Numbered from the stretch's first letter, positions 1 through 61,875 are shown. The stretch: DNA of 64,000 bases from a virus (IMGVR_UViG_3300045988_086533:5140-69139); one strand, 5' to 3'. Numbers and translations: made by a program. Notes: generated from the sequence alone by a model not told the origin.

Positions 1-1001
1 CTAGTAACTTATTAGAAATAACTAATTATTATGAATTAGATTTTAGCGTTGAGGGTATATCTCTTAGAGCTACAGATGGAGTTAACTTCATAACAGTTAA
101 TCATCCAACAAAATGTGATGAAGATATGTCAGTTATAGTAAAAGCTGATCAATTTAGTAAGTTGATAAATAAAACTACTAAAGATACAGTAGGACTTAAA
201 TTAATGGACAATTATTTAGAGGTAAAAGGTAATGGTACATATAAAGTAGAAATAGTTAGTGATGAAGTTTACCCAACTTTGGATATAGATGCTGATAAAG
301 AGTTTATGATAACATATACAACTTTGAGTAATGCAATAGTTGATGGTGCAAAAGCCAAAAGTACATCATCTAATGATGGTGTATTATATAGTTACTTACT
401 ACGAGATAATCAACTTATTACTGCAGATGCTATAAAAGTGTATAGTACAGAGTTGGACGGTGAGTATCTGGATGACATGGAATTATTAATACCTCCAACT
501 TTAGCCAATTTATTACAATCTATAGATACAGAGAAGGTAATATTTACGGTAAATAAGGATTGTACATTATTAAGAGCAATAGGACAGAATGTAATTATTA
601 CAGGAGCATTACAAGAAGGGGCAGCTGAGTATCCAAATGTAGTTCCATTATTAGCTGGTAAATATCCATATACTTGTGAGGTGGATGTTAAGGAAGTTTT
701 ACGAGCACTAGATAGATTGAACTTATTTGTGAGTCCATATGATAGAGGTATTATAGACTTAGTATTTACCAACACAAATATGACCATATCAACCGCTAGC
801 AAGTCCCTAGAGGCGATTGAGTATACTAAAGGGATAGATTTACCTGACCCATTTATAATAAGTGTAGATGGGGGTTATTTAAAGGACTTATTTAGTGCAG
901 TAGATGAACCTAATGTAAAAATACAATTCGGTACAGAAGAAACTATTAAGCTATGTACTAAGGATAGTATAATGATGTTGGCAACTGCCGACGAAGAATA
1001 G
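1..1001 (+). CDS. dnaN: DNA polymerase III beta-type sliding clamp (5' end lies outside window)
   Basis: The frame of the 126..1001 ORF stays open back to nt 3 (..ISLRATDGVNFITV.., clamp-like ATDG signature). The gene is co-located with clamp-loader genes. Confidence 0.7.
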   Translation, partial: SNLLEITNYYELDFSVEGISLRATDGVNFITVNHPTKCDEDMSVIVKADQFSKLINKTTKDTVGLKLMDNYLEVKGNGTYKVEIVSDEVYPTLDIDADKEFMITYTTLSNAIVDGAKAKSTSSNDGVLYSYLLRDNQLITADAIKVYSTELDGEYLDDMELLIPPTLANLLQSIDTEKVIFTVNKDCTLLRAIGQNVIITGALQEGAAEYPNVVPLLAGKYPYTCEVDVKEVLRALDRLNLFVSPYDRGIIDLVFTNTNMTISTASKSLEAIEYTKGIDLPDPFIISVDGGYLKDLFSAVDEPNVKIQFGTEETIKLCTKDSIMMLATADEE

Positions 1002-3229: not shown

Positions 3230-3260
3230 AGTGGGTGGTTAGTAAATCACCCACTTTTTC
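3230..3260 (+). terminator. intrinsic terminator after dut
   Basis: AGTGGGTG / CACCCACT 8-bp stem followed by a T-run. Confidence 0.55.
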
Positions 3261-5142: not shown

Positions 5143-5475
5143 ATGAGTACAAGAAGTAAAAGTGATGAACAAGAACAATATGTAGCTAATTACTTGGAAG
5201 GAGAAGTTACACCTAATAGTGGTGCAGGACATACTAAAAAAGGAGATGTATTAGTTGATACATTTTACTTAATAGAATGTAAAACTAAAATGCAACCTGC
5301 AACACAATTTACCATAAAGAAAGAATGGATAACTAAACTACAACAACAATCATTGGCAATGCATAGACCATATAGTGCGTTAGTATTTGACTTTGGGAAG
5401 GTGGGGGAAGAATATGCAATAATACCATTACAGGATCTAAAAGACTATATAGAAAAATTAAGGGAGGAATTATAA
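5143..5475 (+). CDS. small PD-(D/E)XK-type nuclease (possible resolvase)
   Basis: AAGGAGG SD. GDVLVDTFYLIECKTK gives a D..E-x-K arrangement. 110 aa. Confidence 0.45.
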   Translation: MSTRSKSDEQEQYVANYLEGEVTPNSGAGHTKKGDVLVDTFYLIECKTKMQPATQFTIKKEWITKLQQQSLAMHRPYSALVFDFGKVGEEYAIIPLQDLKDYIEKLREEL

Positions 5476-6488
5476 TGGAAGCATTAGCAACTAAATATAG
5501 ACCGAGAACATTTAATGACGTGGTGTGTCAAGATAATATAAAAAAGGTATTAACTAACCAATTGGAAACTGGAGAGATAAAACAAGCTTATTTGTTCGCC
5601 GGAAGCCCTGGAACTGGTAAAACTACTAGTGCTAGGATATTTGCAAATGACGTAAATGAAGGTAAAGGAAAACCAATAGAAATAGACGGTGCCAGTAATA
5701 ATGGTGTTGATAATATACGTAGTATAATTGATGACTGTAAAATGAAAAGTTTAGACAGTAAATACAAAGTATACATAATAGATGAAGTTCATATGTTGAG
5801 TCTCGGTGCATTCAATGCCCTATTAAAAGTGTTAGAAGAACCACCAAAGGGAGTTATATTCATATTATGTACAACAGATCCACATAAGATACCACCAACT
5901 ATATTAAGTAGATTACAACGTTTTGACTTTAAACGTATACCACAATTCGATATAGTACAAAGATTAGAGTATATCTTAAAAAAGGAAGGTATATTAACAT
6001 ATAACGTAGAGGCAATAGAGTATATAGCAAAATTAGCTGACGGGGGAATGAGAGATGCCATAATGAAACTAGATACAGTACTAGGTTATACAAATGAGAT
6101 AACACTACAAGCAGTATTAGATTGCTTAGGAATTACTAATTATGAATATCTATTAGGAATAGTACAAGGGATTATAAATAAACAACCAGATGAACCGATA
6201 CAAATAATCGACAAGATATATAGAGACGGAAAAGACTTAAAACTATTTGTAAAGGACTTAAATAAGTTTGTACTAGATTTATGTAAGCTGAATATAACAA
6301 GAAATAAAGAGTTAACAATGATACCAACTGATATAATGCGACAATGTATCCATATAGCAACTAATACTTCAAAGTATGACTTAGTAGATATATTGGATGG
6401 GATCAATAACTTATTAGACAAGATAAAATATGAGCAGAATCCTAAAAATTTAGTTGAAAGCGAGTTGATAATCTTATGTCTAAAATAA
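5475..6488 (+). CDS. dnaX: clamp loader subunit, DNA polymerase III gamma/tau-like
   Basis: YRPRTFNDVV, Walker A GSPGTGKTT, DEVHML, SRLQRF sensor motif. Confidence 0.8.
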   Translation: MEALATKYRPRTFNDVVCQDNIKKVLTNQLETGEIKQAYLFAGSPGTGKTTSARIFANDVNEGKGKPIEIDGASNNGVDNIRSIIDDCKMKSLDSKYKVYIIDEVHMLSLGAFNALLKVLEEPPKGVIFILCTTDPHKIPPTILSRLQRFDFKRIPQFDIVQRLEYILKKEGILTYNVEAIEYIAKLADGGMRDAIMKLDTVLGYTNEITLQAVLDCLGITNYEYLLGIVQGIINKQPDEPIQIIDKIYRDGKDLKLFVKDLNKFVLDLCKLNITRNKELTMIPTDIMRQCIHIATNTSKYDLVDILDGINNLLDKIKYEQNPKNLVESELIILCLK

Positions 6489-7279
6489 TAGGTCAGGCTA
6501 AGTTACAAGCCAAGCTGAATGGTCAACCTATACCTCACTTTTTTATATTGTGGGGTGATAGAGGGGCAGGGAAGTATCTAATGAGTAAACAAATAGCTAA
6601 TAATAACCATTATAATTATGTATTAGTGGATAATAATATCGAAGGTATTAGACAATTAATAGAAGATTGTACTGCTATATCTACACCGACATTATTTTAT
6701 ATAAAGGGAGATGAGTTATCTATACCAGCACAGAATGCATTGCTTAAATTAGCTGAGGAGCCACCTAGTAAAGGCTACATAATGATTGGAGTAAGAAATA
6801 TAGATAATTTATTAGCAACAATACGTAGTAGAGCAAAACTATTAATAATGGATAATTACAGTGTACACGAGCTAAATGATGTATTTGATTTATACGATCT
6901 GGGTGAAGTGCCAAGAGATATACTATGTAAAGTAGCCACAACACCGGGGCAAATGTTGGAATATGTTGATAAGGATTTCATCAATATGTATCAATATGCA
7001 TTAAAGGTATACAACAATATATTAAGAGTTAGCACAGGGAACGCCTTTAAGATATGTAATCCAATAGGGTTTAAAGAAAATGATGGCTATCCAGTGGAAC
7101 TATTTTTAGAACTATTTAAACAGGTAGTAATAGATGAGCAGAAACACAGTAGCTATGTGGATCATAAGATGATAGAGTACACTAGTTTAGCACTAAGAGA
7201 TTTAAGGATAAGAGGAGCAAATAAACCATTAATATTCGATATATTTGTACTAAATATTAGAACTTTAAGGGGGAAATAA
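6476..7279 (+). CDS. holB: clamp loader subunit, delta'-like
   Basis: Degenerate P-loop GDRGAGKY. LLKLAEEPP and TIRSRAKLL motifs typical of delta'. Confidence 0.6.
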   Translation: MSKIIGQAKLQAKLNGQPIPHFFILWGDRGAGKYLMSKQIANNNHYNYVLVDNNIEGIRQLIEDCTAISTPTLFYIKGDELSIPAQNALLKLAEEPPSKGYIMIGVRNIDNLLATIRSRAKLLIMDNYSVHELNDVFDLYDLGEVPRDILCKVATTPGQMLEYVDKDFINMYQYALKVYNNILRVSTGNAFKICNPIGFKENDGYPVELFLELFKQVVIDEQKHSSYVDHKMIEYTSLALRDLRIRGANKPLIFDIFVLNIRTLRGK

Positions 7280-7280
7280 T

Positions 7281-7604
7281 ATGTTACCATTAAAAAATGA
7301 TGCTAGGGAAATTAAGAAGTTTGCCAAACAATTTGCAGAGGCTTATAAAGATTGTTTTGCTTGGTATAGTGAAGAAAAATATGTTCGTGGGTTTGCTGCA
7401 AGACACTTTGAAACTGTATGTGCTATCAATGAAGATGAGAATGGGATCAAGATAAGCAAGAAAAATAAAAAATTATTTATAGATGAATTTAGTAAAATTA
7501 CATTAAATAATATACTATATATGAAGGAACAACACAACATAAAGGAAAAACAGGACATTAAGAAACATGGGATAAAACGTAAAAAACAAAAGGGAGGAAA
7601 ATAA
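7281..7604 (+). CDS. hypothetical basic protein between the clamp-loader genes
   Basis: AAGGGGG SD. 107 aa with a Lys-rich tail. Contains an internal NKKLF. Confidence 0.55.
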   Translation: MLPLKNDAREIKKFAKQFAEAYKDCFAWYSEEKYVRGFAARHFETVCAINEDENGIKISKKNKKLFIDEFSKITLNNILYMKEQHNIKEKQDIKKHGIKRKKQKGGK

Positions 7605-7605
7605 T

Positions 7606-7764
7606 ATGTTTAATTTTATGGTTTTAATAGTTGCAATGAGTATAGTAATTGATTGGATAACACAAACAATAGGCGATAGGGATATTGATGGTATAAGTGC
7701 TATAGTAATTTCATTAGCTATATGGTATTTAATCCAAATAGTGGGAGGAATAAAATTATGTTAG
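7606..7764 (+). CDS. small membrane protein (52 aa)
   Basis: Not in the ORF track. AAGGGAGG SD 7 nt before the ATG. Two hydrophobic segments (MFNFMVLIVAMSIVI.., ISAIVISLAIWYLIQIVGG). Confidence 0.45.
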   Translation: MFNFMVLIVAMSIVIDWITQTIGDRDIDGISAIVISLAIWYLIQIVGGIKLC

Positions 7765-8657
7765 GTTTATTAGAACTACAGGGGCAAATAAGGGAAGGTA
7801 ATTTACTTCCCTTTTATATTTTTACTGGGGAAGAAATTGAGCTGCAAAATATATACTTAAAACAAATGGGTAATGTAGTGCGTATAGATAGAGTGGCTGA
7901 CATATATAACAAAATAACAAGTAAACTAATAGGCGGTAAATTTGCAGTATATGTAGTTAGAGATGATATGGATTTTATTAAGAGTGAAAAAACGTGGGGC
8001 AGTATAAGTAATAAAATTAGAAATGCAGTATTAGTAGTACAAGTTACAACGCCGAGTAAATGTAAAAAATTTATAAAGGAATTAAATAATTGTGTAGTAG
8101 AATTCAATCATATGACAACAAAACAATTGTTAAGTGTGGTTAATATGAAAGGTAGTGTAAGTAATAAACAATATTTTATAGAAGCCTGCAATAATGATTT
8201 AAATACAATTAACAATTATATGGATATATTCAAGAGATCAGGAATAAAAGAGCTGAATAAAAAGATAGTAGATGAGTATATACCAACAAAAGAAGAAGTA
8301 ACTGTATTTCAACTAGCAGATGCCATAATGAAAAAAGATGAACAATTGACATTTAGATTATTAGACCAGTTATTGGAGGATAAAAATAATGCAATGGGTA
8401 TTATATATGCCATATATTCTCAACTCCATAAATGTGTATTAGTAGAAGGATATAGAGGGGAAGAAGATATCTCTAAAATAACTGGTATTAATAGTTGGAT
8501 ATGTAATAATATACTACGTTATAACCGTATAAAGCCCGCTAAATTACTTACTGCACTACGATTAGTACAAAAGTATGATCAGGGAGTAAAGACAGGCAAA
8601 TATGAAGGTGTAGTAGCTTGTTATAGTTTAATAATAGAAATTTTAAGTTATTGTTAG
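7758..8657 (+). CDS. holA: clamp loader subunit, delta-like
   Basis: ATG at 7758 after GGGAGG. N-terminus LLPFYIFTGEE and ~300 aa size fit HolA. Confidence 0.55.
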   Translation: MLGLLELQGQIREGNLLPFYIFTGEEIELQNIYLKQMGNVVRIDRVADIYNKITSKLIGGKFAVYVVRDDMDFIKSEKTWGSISNKIRNAVLVVQVTTPSKCKKFIKELNNCVVEFNHMTTKQLLSVVNMKGSVSNKQYFIEACNNDLNTINNYMDIFKRSGIKELNKKIVDEYIPTKEEVTVFQLADAIMKKDEQLTFRLLDQLLEDKNNAMGIIYAIYSQLHKCVLVEGYRGEEDISKITGINSWICNNILRYNRIKPAKLLTALRLVQKYDQGVKTGKYEGVVACYSLIIEILSYC

Positions 8658-52914: not shown

Positions 52915-53273
52915 TGGCTCTACCTGGATTTAATGTTAATAAAGTACCAACTGTACAAACTAAATTAATAGAAGAAATTATAGACTATCTTAATAATAGA
53001 GCAGGAACTAAATATAAACATGATGCTAAAAATACTGTCAAATATATTTCCGCCCGACTAAAAGAAGGTTATACATTAGAAGATTTTAAATATGTGATTG
53101 ATGTAAAAATAGCTGAGTGGGGTGGAACTAATATGGAAATGTATATTAGACCACAAACTCTATTTAGTTCTAAAATGGAAAACTATGTTAATCAACCTAT
53201 GCCACGTAGTAATCGTGCTAGTTATCAAGTTGAAAATGATTATAAACACGACACAACTAATAGAAGGATTTAA
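52914..53273 (+). CDS. conserved phage C-terminus (Phg_2220_C) domain protein, DnaD-type replication accessory
   Basis: IIDYLNNRAGTKYK..ISARLKEGYTLEDFKYVID.KIAEW..YIRPQTLFS matches the recalled family consensus closely. Confidence 0.6.
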   Translation: MALPGFNVNKVPTVQTKLIEEIIDYLNNRAGTKYKHDAKNTVKYISARLKEGYTLEDFKYVIDVKIAEWGGTNMEMYIRPQTLFSSKMENYVNQPMPRSNRASYQVENDYKHDTTNRRI

Positions 53274-53288
53274 TCCTTCTATTTTTTT
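53261..53288 (+). terminator. intrinsic terminator
   Basis: TAGAAGGAT / ATCCTTCTA stem with the stop codon in the loop, followed by T7. Confidence 0.55.
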
Positions 53289-53296
53289 AGGTCCAA

Positions 53297-53331
53297 GTTA
53301 GTAAAACGCTCAAATTTTCTATACTATATAA
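53297..53331 (+). promoter_or_regulatory. phage-specific promoter motif, copy 8
   Basis: GTTAGTAAA-N14-TATACTATATAA. Confidence 0.5.
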
Positions 53332-53369
53332 AAAAACCTTTTTTAAAATAAAAATTTTTTAAATTTGTA

Positions 53370-53404
53370 GTTAGTAAAATCGCAAATAATTCTATACTAT
53401 ATAT
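53370..53404 (+). promoter_or_regulatory. phage-specific promoter motif, copy 9
   Basis: GTTAGTAAA-N14-TATACTATATAT. Precedes 53512. Confidence 0.5.
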
Positions 53405-53460
53405 AGATATTAAATATTAGTTATCCTAAAAATAAATAAAGAATCCCGCAATGGGAGATT

Positions 53461-53483
53461 ATTATGCAACAAAGTTGCATAAT
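53461..53483 (+). promoter_or_regulatory. 5'-leader stem-loop
   Basis: Perfect 10-bp stem ATTATGCAAC / GTTGCATAAT with a 3-nt loop, between promoter copy 9 and the SD of 53512. Confidence 0.4.
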
Positions 53484-53511
53484 TCTTTTCAACTAAAAAA
53501 GGAGGAATATT

Positions 53512-53778
53512 ATGATAAGTACTAATAATTATTTGGTGGTGACTCCAAACAACTATTTTTTATGCAATGATGTTAGACACATTATTAATAGTATAAAACA
53601 CAGTTGTTATAGATTAAATGGTCATCAACTACAAAACTTTAATAAACTTATTACTAGACATATAGAGAGAGCTGATTGGAATAAACCAATAAAGAAACAA
53701 AAGTATATCATTAAAGATGATATATATGTAGTAAAGTTAGATAAAGATGAAATAAAAATGTTTTTTAGGGGGTGTTAA
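53512..53778 (+). CDS. hypothetical protein
   Basis: AAAGGAGG SD. 88 aa. Confidence 0.5.
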   Translation: MISTNNYLVVTPNNYFLCNDVRHIINSIKHSCYRLNGHQLQNFNKLITRHIERADWNKPIKKQKYIIKDDIYVVKLDKDEIKMFFRGC

Positions 53779-53780
53779 TT

Positions 53781-54587
53781 ATGGACGAAAAATACAAAAT
53801 ATATAATGGTGATTGCTTAGAGGTTATGGATAAACTGATTGAGCAGGGAATAAAAGTTGATGCAGTAATATGTGATCTTCCATACGGAATAACTGGATAT
53901 AAGTGGGATAGTGTAATTCCATTTAATAAAATGTGGGATAAAGTGAATAAATTAATTAAAGCTGATTGTGCAATTGTATTATTTGGACGTGAACCTTTTA
54001 CAAGTGCATTAAGAATGAGCAATATAAGCAATTATAAATATGAATGGTACTGGAATAAAATTAGTAGTGGTAATTTTGTAGGGGCAAAATTTGCTCCTTT
54101 TAAAATAATTGAAAATATTTGTATTTTTAGTAATGGGAAATGTCCCTATAATCCACAAATGATAGAACGAACTGAAAAAGAAATAAATGATTATATTGCA
54201 AAGAGTCGTAATAATAATATTACAGTTAAAAATGATTATTTATATGATGGATTTAAAAGTGGTGTCATTGTGCCTTCATCCAACCCTAAATATAAATATC
54301 CCGTTAATTTATTAAATTTTAACTGGAAAGCTAAAGAATGTAATAGTAGATATAGAGTGCACCCAACCCAAAAACCAGTAGATCTACTTGAGTATTTAGT
54401 TAAAACTTATACCAATGAAGGTGATTTAATATTAGACTTTACAATGGGGAGTGGCAGCACAGGAGTAGCTTGTTTAAATACTAACCGTAGATTTATTGGA
54501 ATAGAAAAGGAAGAAAAGTATTTTATTATAACCAAAGAGCGACTAGAAGATGCTAAATTGAATAATAGACAAAAGAAATTATTTTAG
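53781..54587 (+). CDS. beta-class DNA methyltransferase (N6A/N4C family), motif IV DLPY
   Basis: Motif IV (CDLPYG) near the N-terminus and motif I (FTMGSGSTG) near the C-terminus. Ends ..NNRQKKLF. Confidence 0.8.
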   Translation: MDEKYKIYNGDCLEVMDKLIEQGIKVDAVICDLPYGITGYKWDSVIPFNKMWDKVNKLIKADCAIVLFGREPFTSALRMSNISNYKYEWYWNKISSGNFVGAKFAPFKIIENICIFSNGKCPYNPQMIERTEKEINDYIAKSRNNNITVKNDYLYDGFKSGVIVPSSNPKYKYPVNLLNFNWKAKECNSRYRVHPTQKPVDLLEYLVKTYTNEGDLILDFTMGSGSTGVACLNTNRRFIGIEKEEKYFIITKERLEDAKLNNRQKKLF

Positions 54588-54600
54588 TGGAGGAATAATT

Positions 54601-54840
54601 ATGAATGATATAGAACTAACTAAGCAGAGACAAAAAGAAATAGCTAAATATGGTAAACGACAAGGTTTTCCAATTTGGGTATGTTTTAAGATGAATTATT
54701 TAGGTGATATAACAGAGATTAAGACATTCTTTACTGCAAGTGCTAAAGATGAGTATATTAGTCAAAAGGTAGATGATTATAACTTTGTAGCATATCTGAC
54801 ATATTCCAATGATGTTAAAAAAGTTTCATATTCTATTTAA
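54601..54840 (+). CDS. hypothetical protein
   Basis: GGAGGA SD. 79 aa. Confidence 0.5.
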   Translation: MNDIELTKQRQKEIAKYGKRQGFPIWVCFKMNYLGDITEIKTFFTASAKDEYISQKVDDYNFVAYLTYSNDVKKVSYSI

Positions 54841-54862
54841 ATGCGAGGGAGATGAGTTTTTT

Positions 54863-55555
54863 ATGAATAATGAAAACTATGAATTATATCAAGGTGATTG
54901 CTTGGTCGTTATGGATAAACTGATTGAGGATGGGATAAAAGTAGATGCAGTAATATCAGATCCACCTTATGGGATGGAGTTTAAAAGTAATCGTAGAAAG
55001 GAAAAATATGAAAAAATTAGTAATGATGATGATTTATCATTTTTAGATGAATATTTTCAAAAATGTAATAGGCTGTTAAAAGATGATACTCATATATATT
55101 GCTTTTGTAGTTGGCATAATATAGATAAATTTAAGATTGCCTTTGAAAAATACTTTACATTAAAAAATATAATAGTATGGGAAAAGAATAATGCATCTAT
55201 GGGTGATTTGTATGGATCATATGCTCCTAAGCACGAATTTATATTATTTGGGCATAAGGGGAGAAGATTAAGAAATGGTAAAAGATTACCGGATGTTATA
55301 CAAGCCAAAAGAACTGGAAATAAATTACATCCAACACAAAAACCCGTTGATTTATTAGAGATTTTTATAAAACAATCAACAAATGAAAATGATGTAATTT
55401 TAGATTCATTTATGGGTAGTGGTAGCACTGGGGTTGCTTGTTTAAAAACCAAAAGGAGATTTATAGGCATTGAAAAAGAGGAAAAATATTTTAATATAAC
55501 TAAAGAACGACTAGCATATGCTAGCTTAAATAATAGACAAAAAAAATTATTTTAG
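54863..55555 (+). CDS. beta-class DNA methyltransferase, motif IV DPPY (likely N6-adenine)
   Basis: SDPPYG and FMGSGSTG. ATG at 54863. Ends ..NNRQKKLF. Confidence 0.8.
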   Translation: MNNENYELYQGDCLVVMDKLIEDGIKVDAVISDPPYGMEFKSNRRKEKYEKISNDDDLSFLDEYFQKCNRLLKDDTHIYCFCSWHNIDKFKIAFEKYFTLKNIIVWEKNNASMGDLYGSYAPKHEFILFGHKGRRLRNGKRLPDVIQAKRTGNKLHPTQKPVDLLEIFIKQSTNENDVILDSFMGSGSTGVACLKTKRRFIGIEKEEKYFNITKERLAYASLNNRQKKLF

Positions 55556-55556
55556 A

Positions 55557-55591
55557 GTTAGTAAACTGTATAGTTTTTCTATACTATATAT
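55557..55591 (+). promoter_or_regulatory. phage-specific promoter motif, copy 10 (P1 of cassette A)
   Basis: GTTAGTAAA-N14-TATACTATATAT. Starts 2 nt after the methyltransferase stop. Confidence 0.55.
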
Positions 55592-55595
55592 GTAA

Positions 55596-55642
55596 CTTAT
55601 TATTAAATTATTTTATTATTTTAATTTTTATTATTTTCTTAT
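55596..55642 (+). repeat. AT-only iterated tract (ATTATTTT-type units)
   Basis: cttattattaaattattttattattttaatttttattattttctt. Confidence 0.5.
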
Positions 55643-55726
55643 ATGACCCAGTAGTGTATAATAAGAGAGTAGGTGATTAACTTCATATAACCAACTAAGA
55701 AATTATTAACAATCCCCATATTTATA

Positions 55727-55760
55727 TTCCAACGGCTTGGTAACCCGTTGGAATTTTTTT
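55727..55760 (+). terminator. intrinsic terminator of cassette A RNA
   Basis: TTCCAACGG / CCGTTGGAA stem followed by T7. Confidence 0.65.
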
Positions 55761-55770
55761 ATTTATTTTA

Positions 55771-55805
55771 GTTAGTAAAATTTGGTATTTTTATATACTA
55801 TATTT
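55771..55805 (+). promoter_or_regulatory. phage-specific promoter motif, copy 11 (P2 of cassette A)
   Basis: GTTAGTAAA-N14-TATACTATATTT. Precedes 55844. Confidence 0.5.
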
Positions 55806-55843
55806 GTAACACAAGATAAATAAAATTTGGAGGAGTGATTTAT

Positions 55844-56539
55844 ATGAGATTAAATTTAATAGGTAATGAAGCTGATAGACAACTTGTATTAGCTAAGGAA
55901 CAAGAAGGGAAAATAAATTTAGTTAACCTACTTAAGAAATATGGTGATGTAGTAGATTATATGACTGAACCAATGGTAGCTAATTTTTATGGAGTGCCAA
56001 ATAAAACTATTAAAACGTTAGCAACTAGAAATGAAAGTGAGTTAAAAGGATATGGATATAAAGTATATAAAAAAAGTGAAATCCTAAAGTTTCAAGATGA
56101 AACTTTAGAGAATGTACCAAATAGAGGATTAAGATTATATCCAACTAAAGCGGTAATAGTGGTAGGTATGATGTTAACTGATAGTCCAGTTGCCGAACAA
56201 TTAAGAAGGGATATAATGGACATATTATTTGGCAAGGAAGTTGCGATACCAACTGAGAGCACTATTAGAAATGTAGTTAGTACTGAACTTGACAAAAGAG
56301 TACCACAATTGGTTGGGTGTAAAGATGCTCAAGTAAAAGCCATTGTTAAAGCCATTAAAGGTAATTTATTTATTAAAACTAAAAAACAAGATTATGCAAA
56401 TTATGAGACTGTAGTAGCATGGTTATTAGGGAAATATGGTGTGTATAAATTAGAGGATATACCATTTAGTGATGACTTATATGTTGAGATAAAAGATTTT
56501 GTTAAGAAATTACATCCAAGACAAAAAAGATTATTTTAG
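55844..56539 (+). CDS. ORF6N/Rha-like DNA-binding domain protein (putative regulator/antirepressor)
   Basis: ATG at 55844 after GGAGGAG. MVANFYGVPNKTIK..NRGLRLYPTKAVIVVGMMLTDSPVA resembles ORF6N. Ends ..RQKRLF. Confidence 0.45.
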   Translation: MRLNLIGNEADRQLVLAKEQEGKINLVNLLKKYGDVVDYMTEPMVANFYGVPNKTIKTLATRNESELKGYGYKVYKKSEILKFQDETLENVPNRGLRLYPTKAVIVVGMMLTDSPVAEQLRRDIMDILFGKEVAIPTESTIRNVVSTELDKRVPQLVGCKDAQVKAIVKAIKGNLFIKTKKQDYANYETVVAWLLGKYGVYKLEDIPFSDDLYVEIKDFVKKLHPRQKRLF

Positions 56540-56541
56540 TA

Positions 56542-56576
56542 GTTAGTAAAACACAACTTTTTTCTATACTATATAT
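56542..56576 (+). promoter_or_regulatory. phage-specific promoter motif, copy 12 (P1 of cassette B)
   Basis: GTTAGTAAA-N14-TATACTATATAT. Confidence 0.55.
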
Positions 56577-56670
56577 GTAAGGGAAATAACCCCTCCCTTA
56601 CATACACAACCCCTTAATATTTTATTTTTTACCCCGGTACCTATTCCCCCTTTGGTATCGGGGGTTTTTT
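56577..56670 (+). ncRNA. candidate small RNA B
   Basis: 5' hairpin GTAAGGGA/TCCCTTAC, AACCCCTT box, terminator. No ATG within it. Ends are approximate. Confidence 0.4.
56632..56670 (+). terminator. intrinsic terminator of cassette B RNA
   Basis: CCCCGGTACC / GGTATCGGGG stem followed by T6. Confidence 0.6.
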
Positions 56671-56674
56671 CTTT

Positions 56675-56709
56675 GTTAGTAAAATTAGAATTTTTAATAT
56701 ACTATAAGT
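56675..56709 (+). promoter_or_regulatory. phage-specific promoter motif, copy 13 (P2 of cassette B)
   Basis: GTTAGTAAA-N14-TATACTATAAGT. Precedes 56727. Confidence 0.45.
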
Positions 56710-56726
56710 AAAGGGAGGTTTTGCAT

Positions 56727-57440
56727 ATGTATGATGTAAAAGATTTTAAATTTATTAAAAATAGATGTTGGTTTAGGACTAACTGTCCTATGTATAATAC
56801 AAAGGACTGCAATTGTAGTTGTAGTGTATATTTTCAGTATTACTATTTAGTTAATCTAGCAAATATACCACCAAATAAGCAGCAACCGGAGGACTTGAAG
56901 TTGAGCGCTGGAGATGACCTTAAAAAGTATGAATATCTTAATGGTGTGAAGAATAATATTAATGAATTTGTACATGATGGATGTAATCTATATTTATACA
57001 GTCCTTACTTTGGTAATGGTAAAACTACTTGGTCCATAAAGTTGATGAGCAAATATTTTAGTAATATTTGGAATGGCAATGGCACTCGTTGTAGAGGTCT
57101 ATTCATCAATGTAGATGAATTTCTAATGGCTAAAAGAAATGCCATAAAACGACCTGACTTAAGACTAGAAGAAATGGAAAAATTAATCCCAAGCGTAGAC
57201 CTTATAGTATGGGATGACATAGGAGTTACAAAATTAAAAGAATATGACCATCAAATATTATTCAGTTTAATCAATCCTCGTATAGTAAATAACAAAGCTA
57301 ATATATTTACTAGTAATGTTATTGATGAACAATTGGATGATAATATTGGGGGTAGATTGGCAAGCAGAATATTAGATACAAGTACAATAGTTGAATTTAC
57401 TAACAAGCCACAAAGGAAACCAAAAGGGGTGAGAATATAA
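56727..57440 (+). CDS. DnaC/IstB-like AAA+ helicase loader with N-terminal Cys cluster
   Basis: Walker A FGNGKTT and Walker B LIVWDDIG. Directly upstream of DnaB. Confidence 0.6.
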   Translation: MYDVKDFKFIKNRCWFRTNCPMYNTKDCNCSCSVYFQYYYLVNLANIPPNKQQPEDLKLSAGDDLKKYEYLNGVKNNINEFVHDGCNLYLYSPYFGNGKTTWSIKLMSKYFSNIWNGNGTRCRGLFINVDEFLMAKRNAIKRPDLRLEEMEKLIPSVDLIVWDDIGVTKLKEYDHQILFSLINPRIVNNKANIFTSNVIDEQLDDNIGGRLASRILDTSTIVEFTNKPQRKPKGVRI

Positions 57441-58735
57441 TGGTACAATTGCAAGCCATAAATGATATATTAAATAATAATAACTTGGATCAATACACAG
57501 GCCAAGGAATAACAAAAGAGTACTTCAAGGACTATCAAGAAGAATTTGAGTTTATAAGTACCCATTTTAGAACTTATGGAAAAGTACCTGACTGGGAAAC
57601 ATTCATGGGAAAATTTCCGGACTTTGATGTCGTGGAAGTATTAGAGCCATTAAAATATATTATATATAACCTTAAGGAAAATTATTTATTTGATCAGGGG
57701 GTTTCATTATTTCAATCTAGCGGTGATATATTAGAACAGAACGCCTTTGATGGCTTACAACACATAGTAACAAGAGCACAACGTCTACTAGATCAAACGG
57801 TACAAAGTGGTGGTGTAAATATTAACAACATGGTAGATGAGAAAATAAAGGACTTAGAGAATAAACGTGCTAAAGGTGGTATGCTTGGAATTGGAAGTGG
57901 CTTACCTGAATTAGATAAGATACTTAATGGATGGCTGCCTGGCGAAGAATTAGTTACTATAGTTGGTAGAGTTAATCAAGGTAAATCTTGGTTGCTACAA
58001 AAGTTTTTAACCGAAGCCAACAAACAATATAAAAAAGTACTCCATTACAGTGGTGAAATGGGGGTATTACAAGTGGCATATAGAAATGATACATTAGGTA
58101 TGAACTACACTAACTCCCAATTAATGAGGGGTACAATAGGTGATGGTGACTATAAACAATATATTAACGACCTAGAAACTAATAAAGAATTACCACCATA
58201 TATAGTAGTAACTCCGGTAGACTTTGGAGGTAAAATGTTAACTGTATCTAAATTGAGAGCACTTATAAAAGAGTATAAACCGGATATAGTTGGTATAGAC
58301 CAGATATCATTAATGGAAGATGAACGACGTGGAAAGGGAGATCAAACAAGAACACAGTACACACATATAGCTCAAGATTTATTTAATATTAGTATAGAAT
58401 TTAGCATTCCAATTATAGTGGATGCCCAAGCCAACCGTAATAAGGCGGATATAGATAAGCCGGAAAACCCCGAACTTGCTGATATAGGAGAGAGTGATGG
58501 CATTGCACAAAATAGTAGTAGAGTAATTTCTTTAGTACAAACTAAAGCGGGGTTGAGCCTTAAAATAACTAAAAATAGATATGGCGAAAATAATAAGCAG
58601 CTACTATATGTGTGGGATATAGATAATGGTATATTTACTTTTGTAACTGAACAACTGGAAGATGGAGCTGACATTGAGCCACAACTACCTTTGAAAAATA
58701 AAAATAAAATAAATGATGTAACTGATGTATTTTAA
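57440..58735 (+). CDS. dnaB: replicative DNA helicase (DnaB-like)
   Basis: GSGLPELD, Walker A GRVNQGKS, IDQISLM, and a RecA-like C-terminal domain. Confidence 0.8.
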   Translation: MVQLQAINDILNNNNLDQYTGQGITKEYFKDYQEEFEFISTHFRTYGKVPDWETFMGKFPDFDVVEVLEPLKYIIYNLKENYLFDQGVSLFQSSGDILEQNAFDGLQHIVTRAQRLLDQTVQSGGVNINNMVDEKIKDLENKRAKGGMLGIGSGLPELDKILNGWLPGEELVTIVGRVNQGKSWLLQKFLTEANKQYKKVLHYSGEMGVLQVAYRNDTLGMNYTNSQLMRGTIGDGDYKQYINDLETNKELPPYIVVTPVDFGGKMLTVSKLRALIKEYKPDIVGIDQISLMEDERRGKGDQTRTQYTHIAQDLFNISIEFSIPIIVDAQANRNKADIDKPENPELADIGESDGIAQNSSRVISLVQTKAGLSLKITKNRYGENNKQLLYVWDIDNGIFTFVTEQLEDGADIEPQLPLKNKNKINDVTDVF

Positions 58736-58763
58736 AAAAAATTATAAGGAGGAATTGAGGAAT

Positions 58764-59612
58764 ATGGAAATTATTAATGATAAATATAAATTATATCAAG
58801 GTGACTGCTTAGAGATTATGGATAAATTGATTGAGGAGAGAGTAGTAGTAGACTTAACTGTAACAAGTCCTCCCTACGATGATCTAAGGGATTATGAGAA
58901 CTCTTTAACATGGAATTTCGATATATTTAAGCAAGTAGCAAATAAATTATATAAAATAACTAAAGATGGTGGCGTGGTAGTGTGGATAGTTGGAGATAAA
59001 ACTAAGAATGGAAGTGAAACAGGAACATCCTTTAAACAAGCATTATATTTTAAAGAAATAGGATTTAATTTGCATGATACTATGATATATGAAAAGAATA
59101 CTAGCAGCTTTCCTGCAAGAAAAACTGGTAATAGATATACTCAAATATTTGAGTATATGTTTGTTTTTAGTAAAGGGAAACCCAAAACAGTAAATTTAAT
59201 TTGTGATAAACCTAATAAATGGGCGGGACATACAAATTGGGGGAAAAACACACAAAGAGATGAGAATGGTGATCTGAAAGAAACTAATAAAATTAAACCA
59301 GTACCTAAATTTTCTCCAAGAAATAATATATGGAGATATGTTGTTGGTAATAGTTTTAACACAAAAGATAAAATAGCACATAAACATCCAGCTATATTTC
59401 CTGAAAAGTTAGCTGAAGACCATATATTAAGCTGGTCAAATGAAGGAGATGTAATACTAGATTGTTTTATGGGGAGTGGTACTACTGGTAAAATGGCTTT
59501 ATTAAATAATAGAAATTTTATAGGAATCGAGAAAGTAGAAAGTTATTTTAATATATCTAAAGAGCGACTAGAATATGCTAAATTAAATAATAGACAAAAG
59601 AAATTATTTTAA
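58764..59612 (+). CDS. beta-class DNA methyltransferase, motif IV SPPY (possibly N4-cytosine)
   Basis: TSPPYD and FMGSGTTG. ATG at 58764. Ends ..NNRQKKLF. Confidence 0.8.
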   Translation: MEIINDKYKLYQGDCLEIMDKLIEERVVVDLTVTSPPYDDLRDYENSLTWNFDIFKQVANKLYKITKDGGVVVWIVGDKTKNGSETGTSFKQALYFKEIGFNLHDTMIYEKNTSSFPARKTGNRYTQIFEYMFVFSKGKPKTVNLICDKPNKWAGHTNWGKNTQRDENGDLKETNKIKPVPKFSPRNNIWRYVVGNSFNTKDKIAHKHPAIFPEKLAEDHILSWSNEGDVILDCFMGSGTTGKMALLNNRNFIGIEKVESYFNISKERLEYAKLNNRQKKLF

Positions 59613-59613
59613 A

Positions 59614-59648
59614 GTTAGCAAAATGGCAATTTTTTCTATACTATATAT
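59614..59648 (+). promoter_or_regulatory. phage-specific promoter motif, copy 14 (P1 of cassette C)
   Basis: GTTAGCAAA-N14-TATACTATATAT. Confidence 0.55.
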
Positions 59649-59748
59649 GTAGAGGAAATGTGGAGGCACATTCTTCTACTCATAATATAACTCCCCTTTT
59701 TTTACCCTGACATTGGAGCGGACAGTGTCAGGGGTTTTTATTTTTTTT
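59649..59748 (+). ncRNA. candidate small RNA C
   Basis: 13-bp 5' hairpin (59649..59679), AACTCCCCTT box, terminator. Same architecture as B. Ends are approximate. Confidence 0.4.
59705..59748 (+). terminator. intrinsic terminator of cassette C RNA
   Basis: CCCTGACA / TGTCAGGG stem followed by T-runs. Confidence 0.6.
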
Positions 59749-59757
59749 AATTTGTTA

Positions 59758-59792
59758 GTTAGTAAATTTAAATAATAAAATATAATATATTT
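59758..59792 (+). promoter_or_regulatory. phage-specific promoter motif, copy 15 (P2 of cassette C, degenerate)
   Basis: GTTAGTAAA-N14-TATAATATATTT. Precedes 59808. Confidence 0.4.
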
Positions 59793-59807
59793 AAAGGAGT
59801 TGATTAT

Positions 59808-59963
59808 ATGTTAACAGGTAAAAAAATAAGAGAAATGGAAATTGAAAAGGATTTAGTAAAAGAATTAAAATGGCTTATAAACAAAGCGGTGGATAATGGG
59901 GATTTATTATTTGAACACTTAGACCCATTGTTTGATTTATTATATAAAGTACAGGAGGGATAA
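59808..59963 (+). CDS. hypothetical protein (51 aa)
   Basis: Not in the track. AAAGGAG SD. Confidence 0.4.
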   Translation: MLTGKKIREMEIEKDLVKELKWLINKAVDNGDLLFEHLDPLFDLLYKVQEG

Positions 59964-59965
59964 TT

Positions 59966-60133
59966 ATGCTACATGAAAGATGTGAACAATGTGAGGAAAG
60001 ATTAGATTATGATTATATAGTTTTAGAGTTACCTGACTATTGCAGCTATAAGAAACTTAAGTTTTGTAGCACTGATTGCTTAGACGAGTGGATAGAAAAC
60101 TTTAGTAGATGGGAGTTGTGCGAGGATGATTAA
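59966..60133 (+). CDS. hypothetical Cys-rich protein (55 aa)
   Basis: Not in the track. GGAGGGA SD. CEQCE..CSTDC. Confidence 0.4.
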   Translation: MLHERCEQCEERLDYDYIVLELPDYCSYKKLKFCSTDCLDEWIENFSRWELCEDD

Positions 60134-61118
60134 TGTTAATGGTATGGAACTTGATACAACGTACCAACAGTTATTAATAGACCTAAAAGGTAGTTTAATG
60201 AGTAATGGAATATTCTTACTAAATGATATAAAACCCACAGGAGATAACATCATGATAACTTGTCCAATTCATAAAGACGGACATGAGCATAAACCCTCTT
60301 GTGGGGTTTCTATTGTACCGAAGTATCAGGGATCTAAACTAATAGAACCTGGGACAGTGCATTGTTTTACTTGTGGATATACTGCTTCACTAACCAGTTT
60401 TATCAGTTCTTGTTTTGGATATAACGATGGTGGAATATTTGGGAATAAATGGATTAAAGCTCAGTATAATACCGGCCTAACTGTTAAAACCCGTAAGGTG
60501 GGGCTAAATTTAAGTAGACGAAGAATTACTCAAGAAGACCTACCAAACGTGCCACAGGAGGTGTTACAAGGTTACAGATACACTGTTGGTTATATGTATT
60601 CGCGTGGTTTAACGGATGACATTATTGAACAGTTTGACATTGGATATGACCGTAGAGATGACTGCATAACTATACCAGTTCCCAATTTAAAAGGTGAGGT
60701 AAAATGGATACAACGTAGAAGTATTATAGGGAAAACCTACTATATACCAAGTGGGGTTAGTAAAACTGATTATCTATTAGGAGCAAGTGAAGTTATGAAA
60801 TTAAAACTATATAAACAACCAGTATATATAGTGGAATCTCCCTTTAATATGTTAACTCTTTGGAAGTTAGGACACCCAGCAATATGTTTATTTGGTACTG
60901 GAGGAGGGAATCAGTATGCTATGTTGAATAAGTTACCTATTAGACATTATATAATAGCATTAGATCCCGATGAAGCAGGTAAAAAAGGAAGTAGAAAATT
61001 ATTACATCATTTAGGTAAGACTAAGTTATTGAGCAAGGTAAACTACTTAGATAGTAGAGACATCAACGATTTAGACACGGAATTTAACAAATTAAAAATT
61101 TCACCAATAAACTTATAA
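60126..61118 (+). CDS. dnaG: DNA primase (DnaG-like: zinc finger plus TOPRIM)
   Basis: CPIHKDGHEHKPSC..HCFTCG zinc finger. TOPRIM-like VESPFN..ALDPDEAG. Confidence 0.75.
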   Translation: MINVNGMELDTTYQQLLIDLKGSLMSNGIFLLNDIKPTGDNIMITCPIHKDGHEHKPSCGVSIVPKYQGSKLIEPGTVHCFTCGYTASLTSFISSCFGYNDGGIFGNKWIKAQYNTGLTVKTRKVGLNLSRRRITQEDLPNVPQEVLQGYRYTVGYMYSRGLTDDIIEQFDIGYDRRDDCITIPVPNLKGEVKWIQRRSIIGKTYYIPSGVSKTDYLLGASEVMKLKLYKQPVYIVESPFNMLTLWKLGHPAICLFGTGGGNQYAMLNKLPIRHYIIALDPDEAGKKGSRKLLHHLGKTKLLSKVNYLDSRDINDLDTEFNKLKISPINL

Positions 61119-61126
61119 AAAAATAG

Positions 61127-61155
61127 TTGCATAATTATATAAGTAACAATATAAT
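61127..61155 (+). promoter_or_regulatory. sigma-A-type promoter in front of the second sigma gene
   Basis: TTGCAT-17 nt-TATAAT. About 50 nt nearly identical to the promoter at 50256. Confidence 0.6.
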
Positions 61156-61206
61156 ATAAGTATAAATAAAAGATAAAAAAATATAAGTTACCAGGGGGAA
61201 TGATGT

Positions 61207-61809
61207 ATGTTTAATGATGTAGTAAAAGTATATGGAATGGAACACACTGATGAGGAATTATTAAAAGATTACCAAGCAGGATTACATAATGAAGTTATTG
61301 CATATGTATTTGAAATGAATAAAAATTTATTTTACCAAGTAAGTAAAAAATATGTTGGTGTAAGTACCGACGAAGTTACAAGTATTATATTAGAACAAAT
61401 ATGGAAATGTTTTGAAAATTATAATCCTGAAAAGAATAGTAGTGGTAAATTAACTAGTATGATATGTGTTTATATTAAGAATGCTCTTAGAACTCTAACA
61501 CAAAGTAACTCAAGCAATAAGAGAAAAGCCAACAATGGTGATCAATGTACTCCAATGAGTTGCTTTGAAACAACTGAGGATAGATGGGAAGAAACAAGCA
61601 TTGAAGATGAATATGATAAAGTTGAATTATCTGATTTAGTTAATAAAGAAGATCTATCACCAAAACAACTTCAATACTGCATGGTGGCACTAGACCATAT
61701 GTGTGACTTACAACAATCTCATATGGCGAGAGAAATTGGAGTTAGCACTGCAGGTGTTGTCGGTATTAGAAGAGCATTACAAAAGAAATTAAATTATTTA
61801 TTAGGTTAG
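61207..61809 (+). CDS. sigma-70 family (ECF-sized) sigma factor
   Basis: Region-2-like FENYNPEK..LTSMICVYIKNALR. Region-4 HTH LSPKQLQYCMVAL..MAREIGVSTAGVVGIRRAL. Confidence 0.55.
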   Translation: MFNDVVKVYGMEHTDEELLKDYQAGLHNEVIAYVFEMNKNLFYQVSKKYVGVSTDEVTSIILEQIWKCFENYNPEKNSSGKLTSMICVYIKNALRTLTQSNSSNKRKANNGDQCTPMSCFETTEDRWEETSIEDEYDKVELSDLVNKEDLSPKQLQYCMVALDHMCDLQQSHMAREIGVSTAGVVGIRRALQKKLNYLLG

Positions 61810-61839
61810 TAAATAGGGAGGTCTTACTATACTATATAT
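61805..61839 (+). promoter_or_regulatory. phage-specific promoter motif, copy 16
   Basis: GTTAGTAAA-N14-TATACTATATAT. Overlaps the sigma gene stop and its terminator. Precedes nrdJ. Confidence 0.5.
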
Positions 61840-61851
61840 AGTAAGACTTTT
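61821..61851 (+). terminator. terminator after the second sigma gene
   Basis: GTCTTACTATA / TATAGTAAGAC stem followed by TTTT. Encloses the TATACT box. Confidence 0.5.
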
Positions 61852-61875
61852 TAATAGAATAAAGGAGGTAGTTGT

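Follow-up and report, generated by a model that had tools for sequence, protein, structure and literature searches.

Analysis of a 64,000-nucleotide stretch of viral DNA (IMGVR_UViG_3300045988_086533:5140-69139; hereafter 'the window') reveals that three orphan DNA methyltransferases, MT1, MT2 and MT3, and an unrelated, DNA-binding-like protein of 231 residues carry the pentapeptide Q-[KR]-[KR]-L-F-COOH at their extreme C-termini. We consider it likely, judging from its pattern of conservation, that with this tail, a short linear motif of the Qxx[LM]F type, the proteins dock onto a β sliding clamp. Comparison of homologues shows that the tail is under selection at the level of the protein.

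According to the listing of open reading frames (ORFs) and the raw sequence, all three methyltransferases end with ...LNNRQKKLF followed by the stop codon (QKKLF codons at 54570-54584 in MT1, 55538-55552 in MT2 and 59595-59609 in MT3), while the 231-residue protein ends with ...HPRQKRLF and the stop codon (codons 56522-56536; see Table 1 for the genes). An earlier reading of this DNA, hereafter the original prediction, had named these ends and codon positions and had described the fourth protein as non-homologous to the methyltransferases, and it was right on both counts. MT1, MT2 and MT3 belong to PF01555 (N6_N4_Mtase), with E-values from 1e-26 to 5e-45, scores of 94, 149 and 155 bits at a gathering cut-off of 26.7 and a catalytic motif of the (D/S)PPY type, and they match PHROG 67, whereas the 231-residue protein matches neither a Pfam nor a PHROG family at threshold. 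In the window proteome (78 ORFs, 19,815 residues), a Q..[LM]F pentapeptide is found six times, in four cases at an extreme C-terminus, where 0.008 would be expected; since the three methyltransferases are paralogous and their 3' ends have been homogenised at the DNA level, these four represent about two independent events.

Conservation of the tail among homologues

A megablast search with positions 53000-60000 found no close relative in INPHARED. Relatives were thus taken from IMG/VR and metagenome assemblies, where many of ~65-71 kb are present; related DNA sequences are labelled L### and homologous proteins P####. Tail conservation was assessed among the best 120 homologues of MT1, the best 120 homologues of the 231-residue protein and, for the relatives of MT2, the best 150 representatives of 50%-identity clusters. 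In the MT1 set, 17 of the 120 proteins end with Q[KRN][KRH]LF, including P0001 (97% identity, identical tail), and their tails fall into two linker classes, ..(L/V)xN[RK]QK[KRH]LF and ..NKLDDVDDEKVITETSISKKQRKLF; the nearest homologues devoid of the tail end directly after the catalytic domain, for example with ..RIENIS. Conservation is broader for the 231-residue protein, with a Qxx[LI][FW] end in 78 of the 120 homologues (RQKRLF, GQKKLF, GQKRLF, KQHHLF, KQKRLW, GQRRLF, IQKSLF and RQRKLF) and in nearly all proteins matching the entire query (P0121-P0200). Relatives that possess a KilAC antirepressor domain end with EQIKLF, EQLNLF or EQIKIF.

Among the more diverse MT2 relatives, eight of the 150 cluster representatives end with Qxx[LM]F (EQLSLF, KQLSLF, QPNLF, QDLLF, QKRLF, QMKLF, QQELF and QLKLF), which is ~600-fold above the expectation of 0.013, and 15 of the 150 end with [LM]F; two canonical QLSLF carriers lie in unrelated phage-like early operons. 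A third enzyme family is represented by a PAPS-reductase-like protein, assigned by a PHROG match only, which ends with KDRQKRLF and is encoded by a phage whose terminase and portal are homologous to those of the window. The variants encountered in homologues include QRKLF, QKHLF, QHHLF, QKTLF, QLSLF and QLNLF, that is, Q, L and F are constant while the two residues between Q and L, the residue preceding Q and the linker (2 to ~20 residues) are all variable, and the tail persists, with altered linkers, in homologues of as little as ~50% identity. It is because Q, L and F are fixed while the other positions, the linker and the DNA vary that we regard the tail as a short linear motif. Its presence is patchy on a neighbour-joining tree, with ~7 state changes by Fitch parsimony, a rough count to be read qualitatively.

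The AlphaFold2 model of the 231-residue protein predicts the tail to be disordered, residues 226-231 following the last helix with a predicted local distance difference test (pLDDT) score below 50. The features expected of a client that docks onto a β clamp are found together: (i) a match to Qxx[LM]F, (ii) an exposed, flexible terminal segment, (iii) key positions that are conserved independently of their flanks and of the DNA, and (iv) a β-type clamp that is available. The fixed Q, L and F, the QLSLF and QLNLF variants, the predicted disorder and the presence of a genuine clamp with its loader strongly support the suggestion of the original prediction that the tails are clamp-binding motifs. 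In other phages, tails reading QLSLF or QLNLF would be suited to the clamp of the host.

The history of MT3 is informative as to how a tail can be gained. In L109, a relative with 98% identity in the clamp, MT3 is absent; the gene is a presence/absence polymorphism among 98%-identical phages (window 58736-59612 versus L109 2104-2130), inserted between the DnaB gene and the downstream promoter. Phages of ~115-123 kb in the same sample (L001-L004) encode a methyltransferase with which the MT3 core shares 80% identity. The orthologue in L001, a different phage, diverges from MT3 exactly at the last ~52 nucleotides (nt) and ends with ..ERIKNILI, whereas the last ~52 nt of MT3 match the 3' end of MT1 almost exactly. 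Furthermore, L104 contains an MT1-like core fused to the region downstream of MT2. The MT3 end and the L104 junction thus indicate that conserved, tail-bearing 3' ends recombine, and the newly acquired MT3 appears, from these alignments, to have been given its tail by recombination.

Many IMG/VR homologues of MT3 from other phages (L032, L034, L035, L037, L039-L041, L045, L047, L063, L077, L078 and L080) have in common a different, conserved C-terminal tail, ..N[PA]L[EAV]DAL[YS], after a variable linker. It may be a docking peptide for another partner.

The phage clamp and neighbouring replication proteins

The first gene of the window encodes a genuine β clamp. A profile built from 42 homologues matches β clamps in the PDB (E=1e-25), the AlphaFold2 model has a pLDDT of 93, and Foldseek, whose top matches are β clamps only, aligns the model with B. 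subtilis DnaN (4tr6) at a template modelling (TM) score of 0.87. Along with three clamp-loader genes, this bears out the proposal that the phage encodes its own β clamp and loader. The profile alignment with solved clamps ends ~20 residues short of the C-terminus, which is acidic throughout this clamp family (..MLLATADEE, ..MLLSTLDNE); the clamps of E. coli and B. subtilis end with ..PMRL and ..PVRTY, respectively. These ends suggest a possible charge complementarity between the acidic clamp C-terminus and the basic tails.

Further indications as to what this clamp may recognise come from the family-A DNA polymerase PolA, which is encoded outside the window and was read in L109 (7496-9853). 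The phage PolA starts with MSLFKDTF followed by a basic, low-complexity linker, and orthologues down to 35% identity start with MTDLFGF.., MVKANLFG.., ..ASLWG.. or MSRIGDMF.., in each case followed by a basic linker. The N-terminal [SDN][LM][FW] peptide is thus conserved (L109 7496-9853, L121-L142, L145 7263, L146 7540) and probably acts as a clamp-binding motif of this PolA-type replicase. Because PolA starts with the peptide expected of a clamp-dependent polymerase, it is suggested that the clamp reads motifs of the L-F type.

Co-occurrence of tails and clamps was assessed among IMG/VR contigs. An exact-DNA scan yielded nine contigs with a QK[KR]LF-tailed gene, six of which also carry the clamp family (086834, 090098, 087401, 092079, 112509 and 3300029690_000122); the other three, without a clamp match, are 097633, which has PolA, and the shorter 068681 and 068733. 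A protein search identified a tailed homologue (L087) on a seventh clamp-bearing contig, 072014. Contigs with tail-less MT3 orthologues were not among the clamp matches, within the limited sensitivity of the scan. In L111 and L117, a tailed methyltransferase gene is located directly upstream of the clamp gene. This pattern is consistent with the phage clamp being the partner of the tails.

Two other replisome proteins have conserved termini of a different kind. DnaB ends with ..INDVTDVF (58712-58735) and the single-stranded DNA-binding protein SSB with ..RRVVDDEF (L109 6747-7430) or ..APSDVF (L145 5675-6340), all of them acidic, terminated by Phe and conserved across clades. In phage T7, gp4 and gp2.5 have acidic, Phe-terminated tails that bind T7 polymerase, and by analogy the DnaB and SSB ends may represent a second type of terminal peptide used for docking in the replisome.

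The original prediction had labelled the 231-residue protein an ORF6N-like regulator, and this label could not be established: the ORF6N match (E=0.069) was obtained only for a relative, P0199. Its N-terminal domain is common to KilAC (PF03374) proteins; the AlphaFold2 model is of moderate quality (pLDDT 67), and a Foldseek search with this model returned winged-helix matches only, none of them significant. The gene is located just upstream of those for the DnaC-like loader, DnaB and primase and, by analogy with known systems, its product would be a replication-coupled transcription factor or an initiator-like protein.

The phage genome comprises ~71 kb of AT-rich DNA (~32% GC) with all genes on the + strand. 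The window starts inside the DnaN-like clamp gene and further encodes RecA, a sigma factor, the three clamp-loader proteins, an SNF2 helicase, the DnaC-like loader, DnaB, primase and a second sigma-like protein, while ribonucleotide reductase, SSB, PolA and the start of the clamp gene lie outside and were read in L109. The PolA gene is split by inserts encoding HNH or GIY-YIG homing endonucleases in L111 (4870-9008), L117 (75-3916) and L145 (7263-9918), which are probably group I introns or inteins, and is intact in L109/L110 and L146. In the more distant clade, PolA is adjoined by genes for Tad2-like (PF11195) and Sequestin (PF21825) proteins (L145 6350-7194; L146 6627-7471), both of which are anti-defence sponge families.

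Table 1. Features of the window relevant to the C-terminal tails
Feature	Position	Strand	Remarks
β sliding clamp (DnaN-like)	1..1001	+	first ~19 residues outside the window; acidic C-terminus ..MMLATADEE; proposed docking partner
Clamp-loader genes	5475..8657	+	gamma/tau-like 5475-6488, delta'-like 6476-7279, delta-like 7722-8657
MT1	53781..54587	+	orphan N6/N4 DNA methyltransferase, motif DLPY; tail followed by ribosome-binding site and ATG, no promoter
RQKKLF tail of MT1	54567..54584	+	putative clamp-binding motif
MT2	54863..55555	+	orphan N6/N4 DNA methyltransferase, motif DPPY; alternative upstream ATG at 54809
RQKKLF tail of MT2	55535..55552	+	
Promoter abutting MT2 stop codon	55558..55588	+	TTAGTAAA-N14-TATACTATA; not the origin of the tail
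231-residue protein	55844..56539	+	putative winged-helix/ORF6N-like N-terminal domain, conserved, common to KilAC antirepressors
RQKRLF tail of 231-residue protein	56519..56536	+	
Promoter abutting stop codon of 231-residue protein	56543..56573	+	
MT3	58764..59612	+	orphan N6/N4 DNA methyltransferase, motif SPPY; insertion; alternative start 58725
RQKKLF tail of MT3	59592..59609	+	
Promoter abutting MT3 stop codon	59615..59645	+	L109 orthologue directly after DnaB, without the AGACAAAA..ATTATTT flank

Promoters and alternative explanations

The explanation that competed with clamp binding in the original prediction takes the peptide for the by-product of a DNA-level cassette boundary, in which the ~20 nt encoding the tail act as an AT-rich flank, similar to an UP element, of the promoter downstream. 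The phage promoter, GTTAG[TC]AAA-N13/14-TATACTATATAT, occurs in 17 copies in the window, all on the + strand, and three of the four tails have its -35 box within 2-3 nt downstream. Moreover, AAAAAATTATTT resembles an A-tract/T-tract, the promoter located inside gene 7281..7604, at 7489, has a similar string in front of it, several other promoters are preceded by T-rich flanks, and the conserved 3' ends serve as recombination substrates, as described above for MT3 and L104. In so compact a genome, proximity to a stop codon is the rule for this promoter: 11 of the 17 copies overlap an upstream stop codon or lie within ~15 nt of one. An UP-like element would accompany its promoter whatever is encoded upstream, but the AGACAAAA..ATTATTT flank is found only at the three tail-adjacent promoters and is absent at the other 14, those in intergenic regions having unrelated flanks. 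L109 provides a natural deletion in this respect: the promoter of the same downstream, hairpin-containing unit directly follows the DnaB end ...DVTDVF-TAG, and the flank is missing. As the promoter lacks the flank where MT3 is lacking, the flank sequence belongs to the methyltransferase gene.

Conversely, the tail is retained in at least seven contexts without a downstream promoter. In the window, MT1 is followed by a ribosome-binding site and ATG and has, as the original prediction had stated, no promoter downstream. In relatives, a ribosome-binding site follows the tail in L112/L115 (NRQKHLF), L145 (NKQKTLF) and L146 (DRQKTLF), a ribosome-binding site and the clamp gene follow in L111 (fourth methyltransferase, ..TSKKQKKLF, Q encoded by CAG) and L117 (KKQRKLF), and a terminator follows in L116 (SNRQKKLF) and L118 (KKKQHHLF). 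In some of these the A/T tract is destroyed by the choice of codons (aga cag aag aaa cta ttt for RQKKLF in L116; cat cat for the two His in L118), yet the tail is kept; reading frame and position of the stop codon are constant, the DNA varies, and only Q, L and F are fixed. Taken together, the flankless L109 promoter, the promoterless tails and the synonymous codon changes refute the translated promoter flank, to which we assign a very low probability.

As to the promoter itself, the copies (e.g., at 3239, 8654, 12780, 20681, 53298, 53371, 55772, 56676, 59759 and 61806) are very uniform and have a -35 region that differs from TTGACA, in a phage with one sigma factor and a second sigma-like protein. 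The three promoters abutting tails drive short non-coding units (55558-55765, 56543-56672 and 59615-59748), each of which opens with a 5' hairpin, continues with an unpaired region rich in C, A and U and closes with an intrinsic terminator; behind it lies a second promoter for the next gene. These units fold better than shuffled sequences (z from -2.0 to -3.8), the one after the gene of the 231-residue protein is conserved in relatives, and an Rfam scan of 53000-62500 gave no match; they are candidate phage small RNAs.

The original prediction had also pointed to three related strings, each of which is present but was rejected as a motif. KKLF near the C-terminus of the SNF2 helicase (..DNKKLFKDIMEG) lacks Q and is not conserved in L118. 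KKLF in the small protein 7281..7604, located between the clamp-loader genes, likewise lacks Q and is internal; KNKKLF is encoded there 9 nt upstream of the -35 box of a full-consensus promoter (7489-7519) which would drive the gene of the delta-like subunit, and a DNA-level or chance origin is possible. Finally, the sigma-like protein does end with LQKKLNYLLG, but this end deviates from Qxx[LM]F and is not conserved in the L145 clade, and the T4-like tethering that had been considered for it was dropped.

Three further explanations leave the tail a peptide but dispense with the clamp or with function altogether. The tail could be a degradation or remodelling tag that is read by ClpX or a similar unfoldase and limits the lifetime of the methyltransferases and the regulator. 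Such timing control of early proteins would be biologically sensible, and the tail is terminal, exposed and basic, then hydrophobic, as is the 'C-motif 2' of MuA (RRKKAI-type), a basic-hydrophobic signal of the ClpX type. What is invariant, however, is Q and not the basic residues (QPNLF, QDLLF, QQELF, QLSLF, QLNLF, QHHLF), so that the pattern matches a clamp motif instead of a basic degron, and the tail co-occurs with phage-encoded clamps; we regard a degron as improbable. Docking onto another phage or host partner, such as PolA, RNA polymerase, DnaB or the clamp loader, is somewhat easier to envisage, although still unlikely: the DVTDVF end of DnaB and the VVDDEF and APSDVF ends of SSB make a network of tail-mediated contacts plausible, and basic residues at the two x positions are atypical of clamp motifs, but the fixed positions correspond exactly to the clamp-binding consensus, canonical QLSLF and QLNLF occur in homologues, and no specific alternative pocket is indicated. 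Finally, a neutral remnant copied among paralogues, that is, chance or shared ancestry alone, would fit the paralogous methyltransferases with their homogenised 3' ends. It has a negligible probability given that the tail is found in unrelated families (the winged helix-turn-helix (wHTH)-like protein and the PAPS-reductase-like protein), is ~600-fold enriched at C-termini of MT2 relatives (8 versus 0.013 expected), and is conserved to ~50% identity despite changes of the linker.

Several points weigh against clamp binding itself. The contact between tail and clamp is predicted from a sequence pattern, and Foldseek and HMMER do not reveal whether the peptide cleft of the clamp, which is very divergent (13-18% identity to solved clamps), is intact. 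Lys/Arg at motif positions 2-3 are atypical of the canonical QL[SD]LF, and a C-terminus that is both basic and hydrophobic could be a protease tag. The three methyltransferase tails are not independent within the window, the last ~52 nt of MT3 being nearly identical to those of MT1. Co-occurrence with the clamp is also incomplete, since no clamp was seen in the retrieved parts of L116, L118, L097/L098 and L049.

Proposed mechanism and relation to known clamp clients

In the mechanism we propose, the clamp-binding motif would sit on a short flexible extension beyond the last helix of each protein and would insert into the hydrophobic cleft between domains II and III of a β sliding clamp; the most probable partner is the DnaN-like clamp that the phage itself encodes and that its own loader would place on phage DNA. 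Clamps left behind on replicated phage DNA would recruit the three orphan methyltransferases and might allow for one-dimensional scanning, such that methylation, and hence protection against restriction, would keep pace with replication. The same coupling to replicating DNA would apply to the 231-residue protein. We are less confident of co-replicative protection as a consequence than of the assignment of the motif. It is also tempting to speculate, albeit as a doubtful extension, that clamp and clients form an orthogonal system in which the basic variant [KR]-Q-K-[KR]-L-F is matched to the phage-specific, acidic end of the clamp (..LATADEE) beside the peptide cleft. In this scheme, only DNA carrying phage clamps would attract the methyltransferases and a DNA-binding factor coupled to replication; phage DNA alone would be methylated, in step with its replication, and host clamp clients would meet no competition from the tails. 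More broadly, clamp-tethered methylation might in that case be a recurrent, unrecognised phage strategy and a prokaryotic counterpart of DNMT1-PCNA.

The motif class as such is well known. Clients of the β clamp with QL[SD]LF or Qxx[LM]F peptides include E. coli Pol II and Pol IV with their C-terminal motifs, UmuC (QLNLF), MutS, Hda and RK2 TrfA. The tails described here resemble these peptides in being pentapeptides with an initial Q and a final L-F (positions 1 and 4-5) at the very end of a flexible extension, in having been taken up by unrelated proteins, in the exact QLSLF and QLNLF found in homologues, and in the presence of a β-type clamp. They differ in that their carriers are DNA methyltransferases and a wHTH-like protein, in that positions 2-3 are Lys/Arg, and in the partner to which binding is predicted, probably a clamp of the phage itself that has diverged strongly and has an acidic C-terminal end. 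With the orphan PF01555 methyltransferases of other phages, MT1-MT3 share ordinary catalytic domains, while a C-terminal extension of ~8-25 residues ending with Qxx[LM]F distinguishes them from tail-less relatives.

The closest functional parallel for the methyltransferases is the eukaryotic maintenance enzyme DNMT1, which binds PCNA (PMC9690074) by means of a PIP-box. In both cases a DNA methyltransferase with a clamp-docking peptide would couple methylation to replication, but the systems are analogous, not homologous: a β dimer is set against the PCNA trimer, Qxx[LM]F against QxxLxxFF, and N6/N4 against C5 methyltransferases, and the presumed purpose here is protection against restriction and not epigenetic maintenance. 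For the 231-residue protein, possible models are transcription factors of other phages that carry a terminal clamp-docking peptide. MuC and Mor contain Qx[DE][LM]F and require the β clamp for late transcription (10.1101/2025.01.04.631326; PMC12867686), and gp33 and gp55 of T4, which act with the clamp gp45, are replication-coupled transcription factors (PMC9690074). However, the motif of MuC/Mor is N-terminal and addresses the host clamp, the T4 clamp is a PCNA-like trimer, and the sigma-like proteins of the present phage are devoid of such a motif. The 231-residue protein, a putative regulator, is unrelated in sequence to either system and could instead be an initiator resembling plasmid TrfA, which the Mu preprint (10.1101/2025.01.04.631326) cites as an initiator with a clamp motif.

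In full-text literature searches, no description was found of clamp-binding motifs on DNA methyltransferases of prokaryotes or phages, or of wHTH-like proteins of the present type as β-clamp clients. The motif class and clamp-dependent phage transcription factors are known already, whereas the methyltransferases would be a new class of clients, accompanied by a distinctive basic variant of the motif and a phage-encoded clamp. As ~5% of diverse relatives possess the motif, some in its canonical QLSLF form, many systems would lend themselves to a test by peptide binding. If true, it would imply that orphan phage methyltransferases ride the sliding clamp instead of diffusing freely, which would explain how all new genome copies of a fast-replicating phage are protected against restriction and would provide a prokaryotic analogue of DNMT1-PCNA coupling. 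The list of β-clamp clients would then gain DNA methyltransferases and an antirepressor-like DNA-binding family, and a terminal Qxx[LM]F on phage proteins may serve as an annotation rule that predicts clamp clients.

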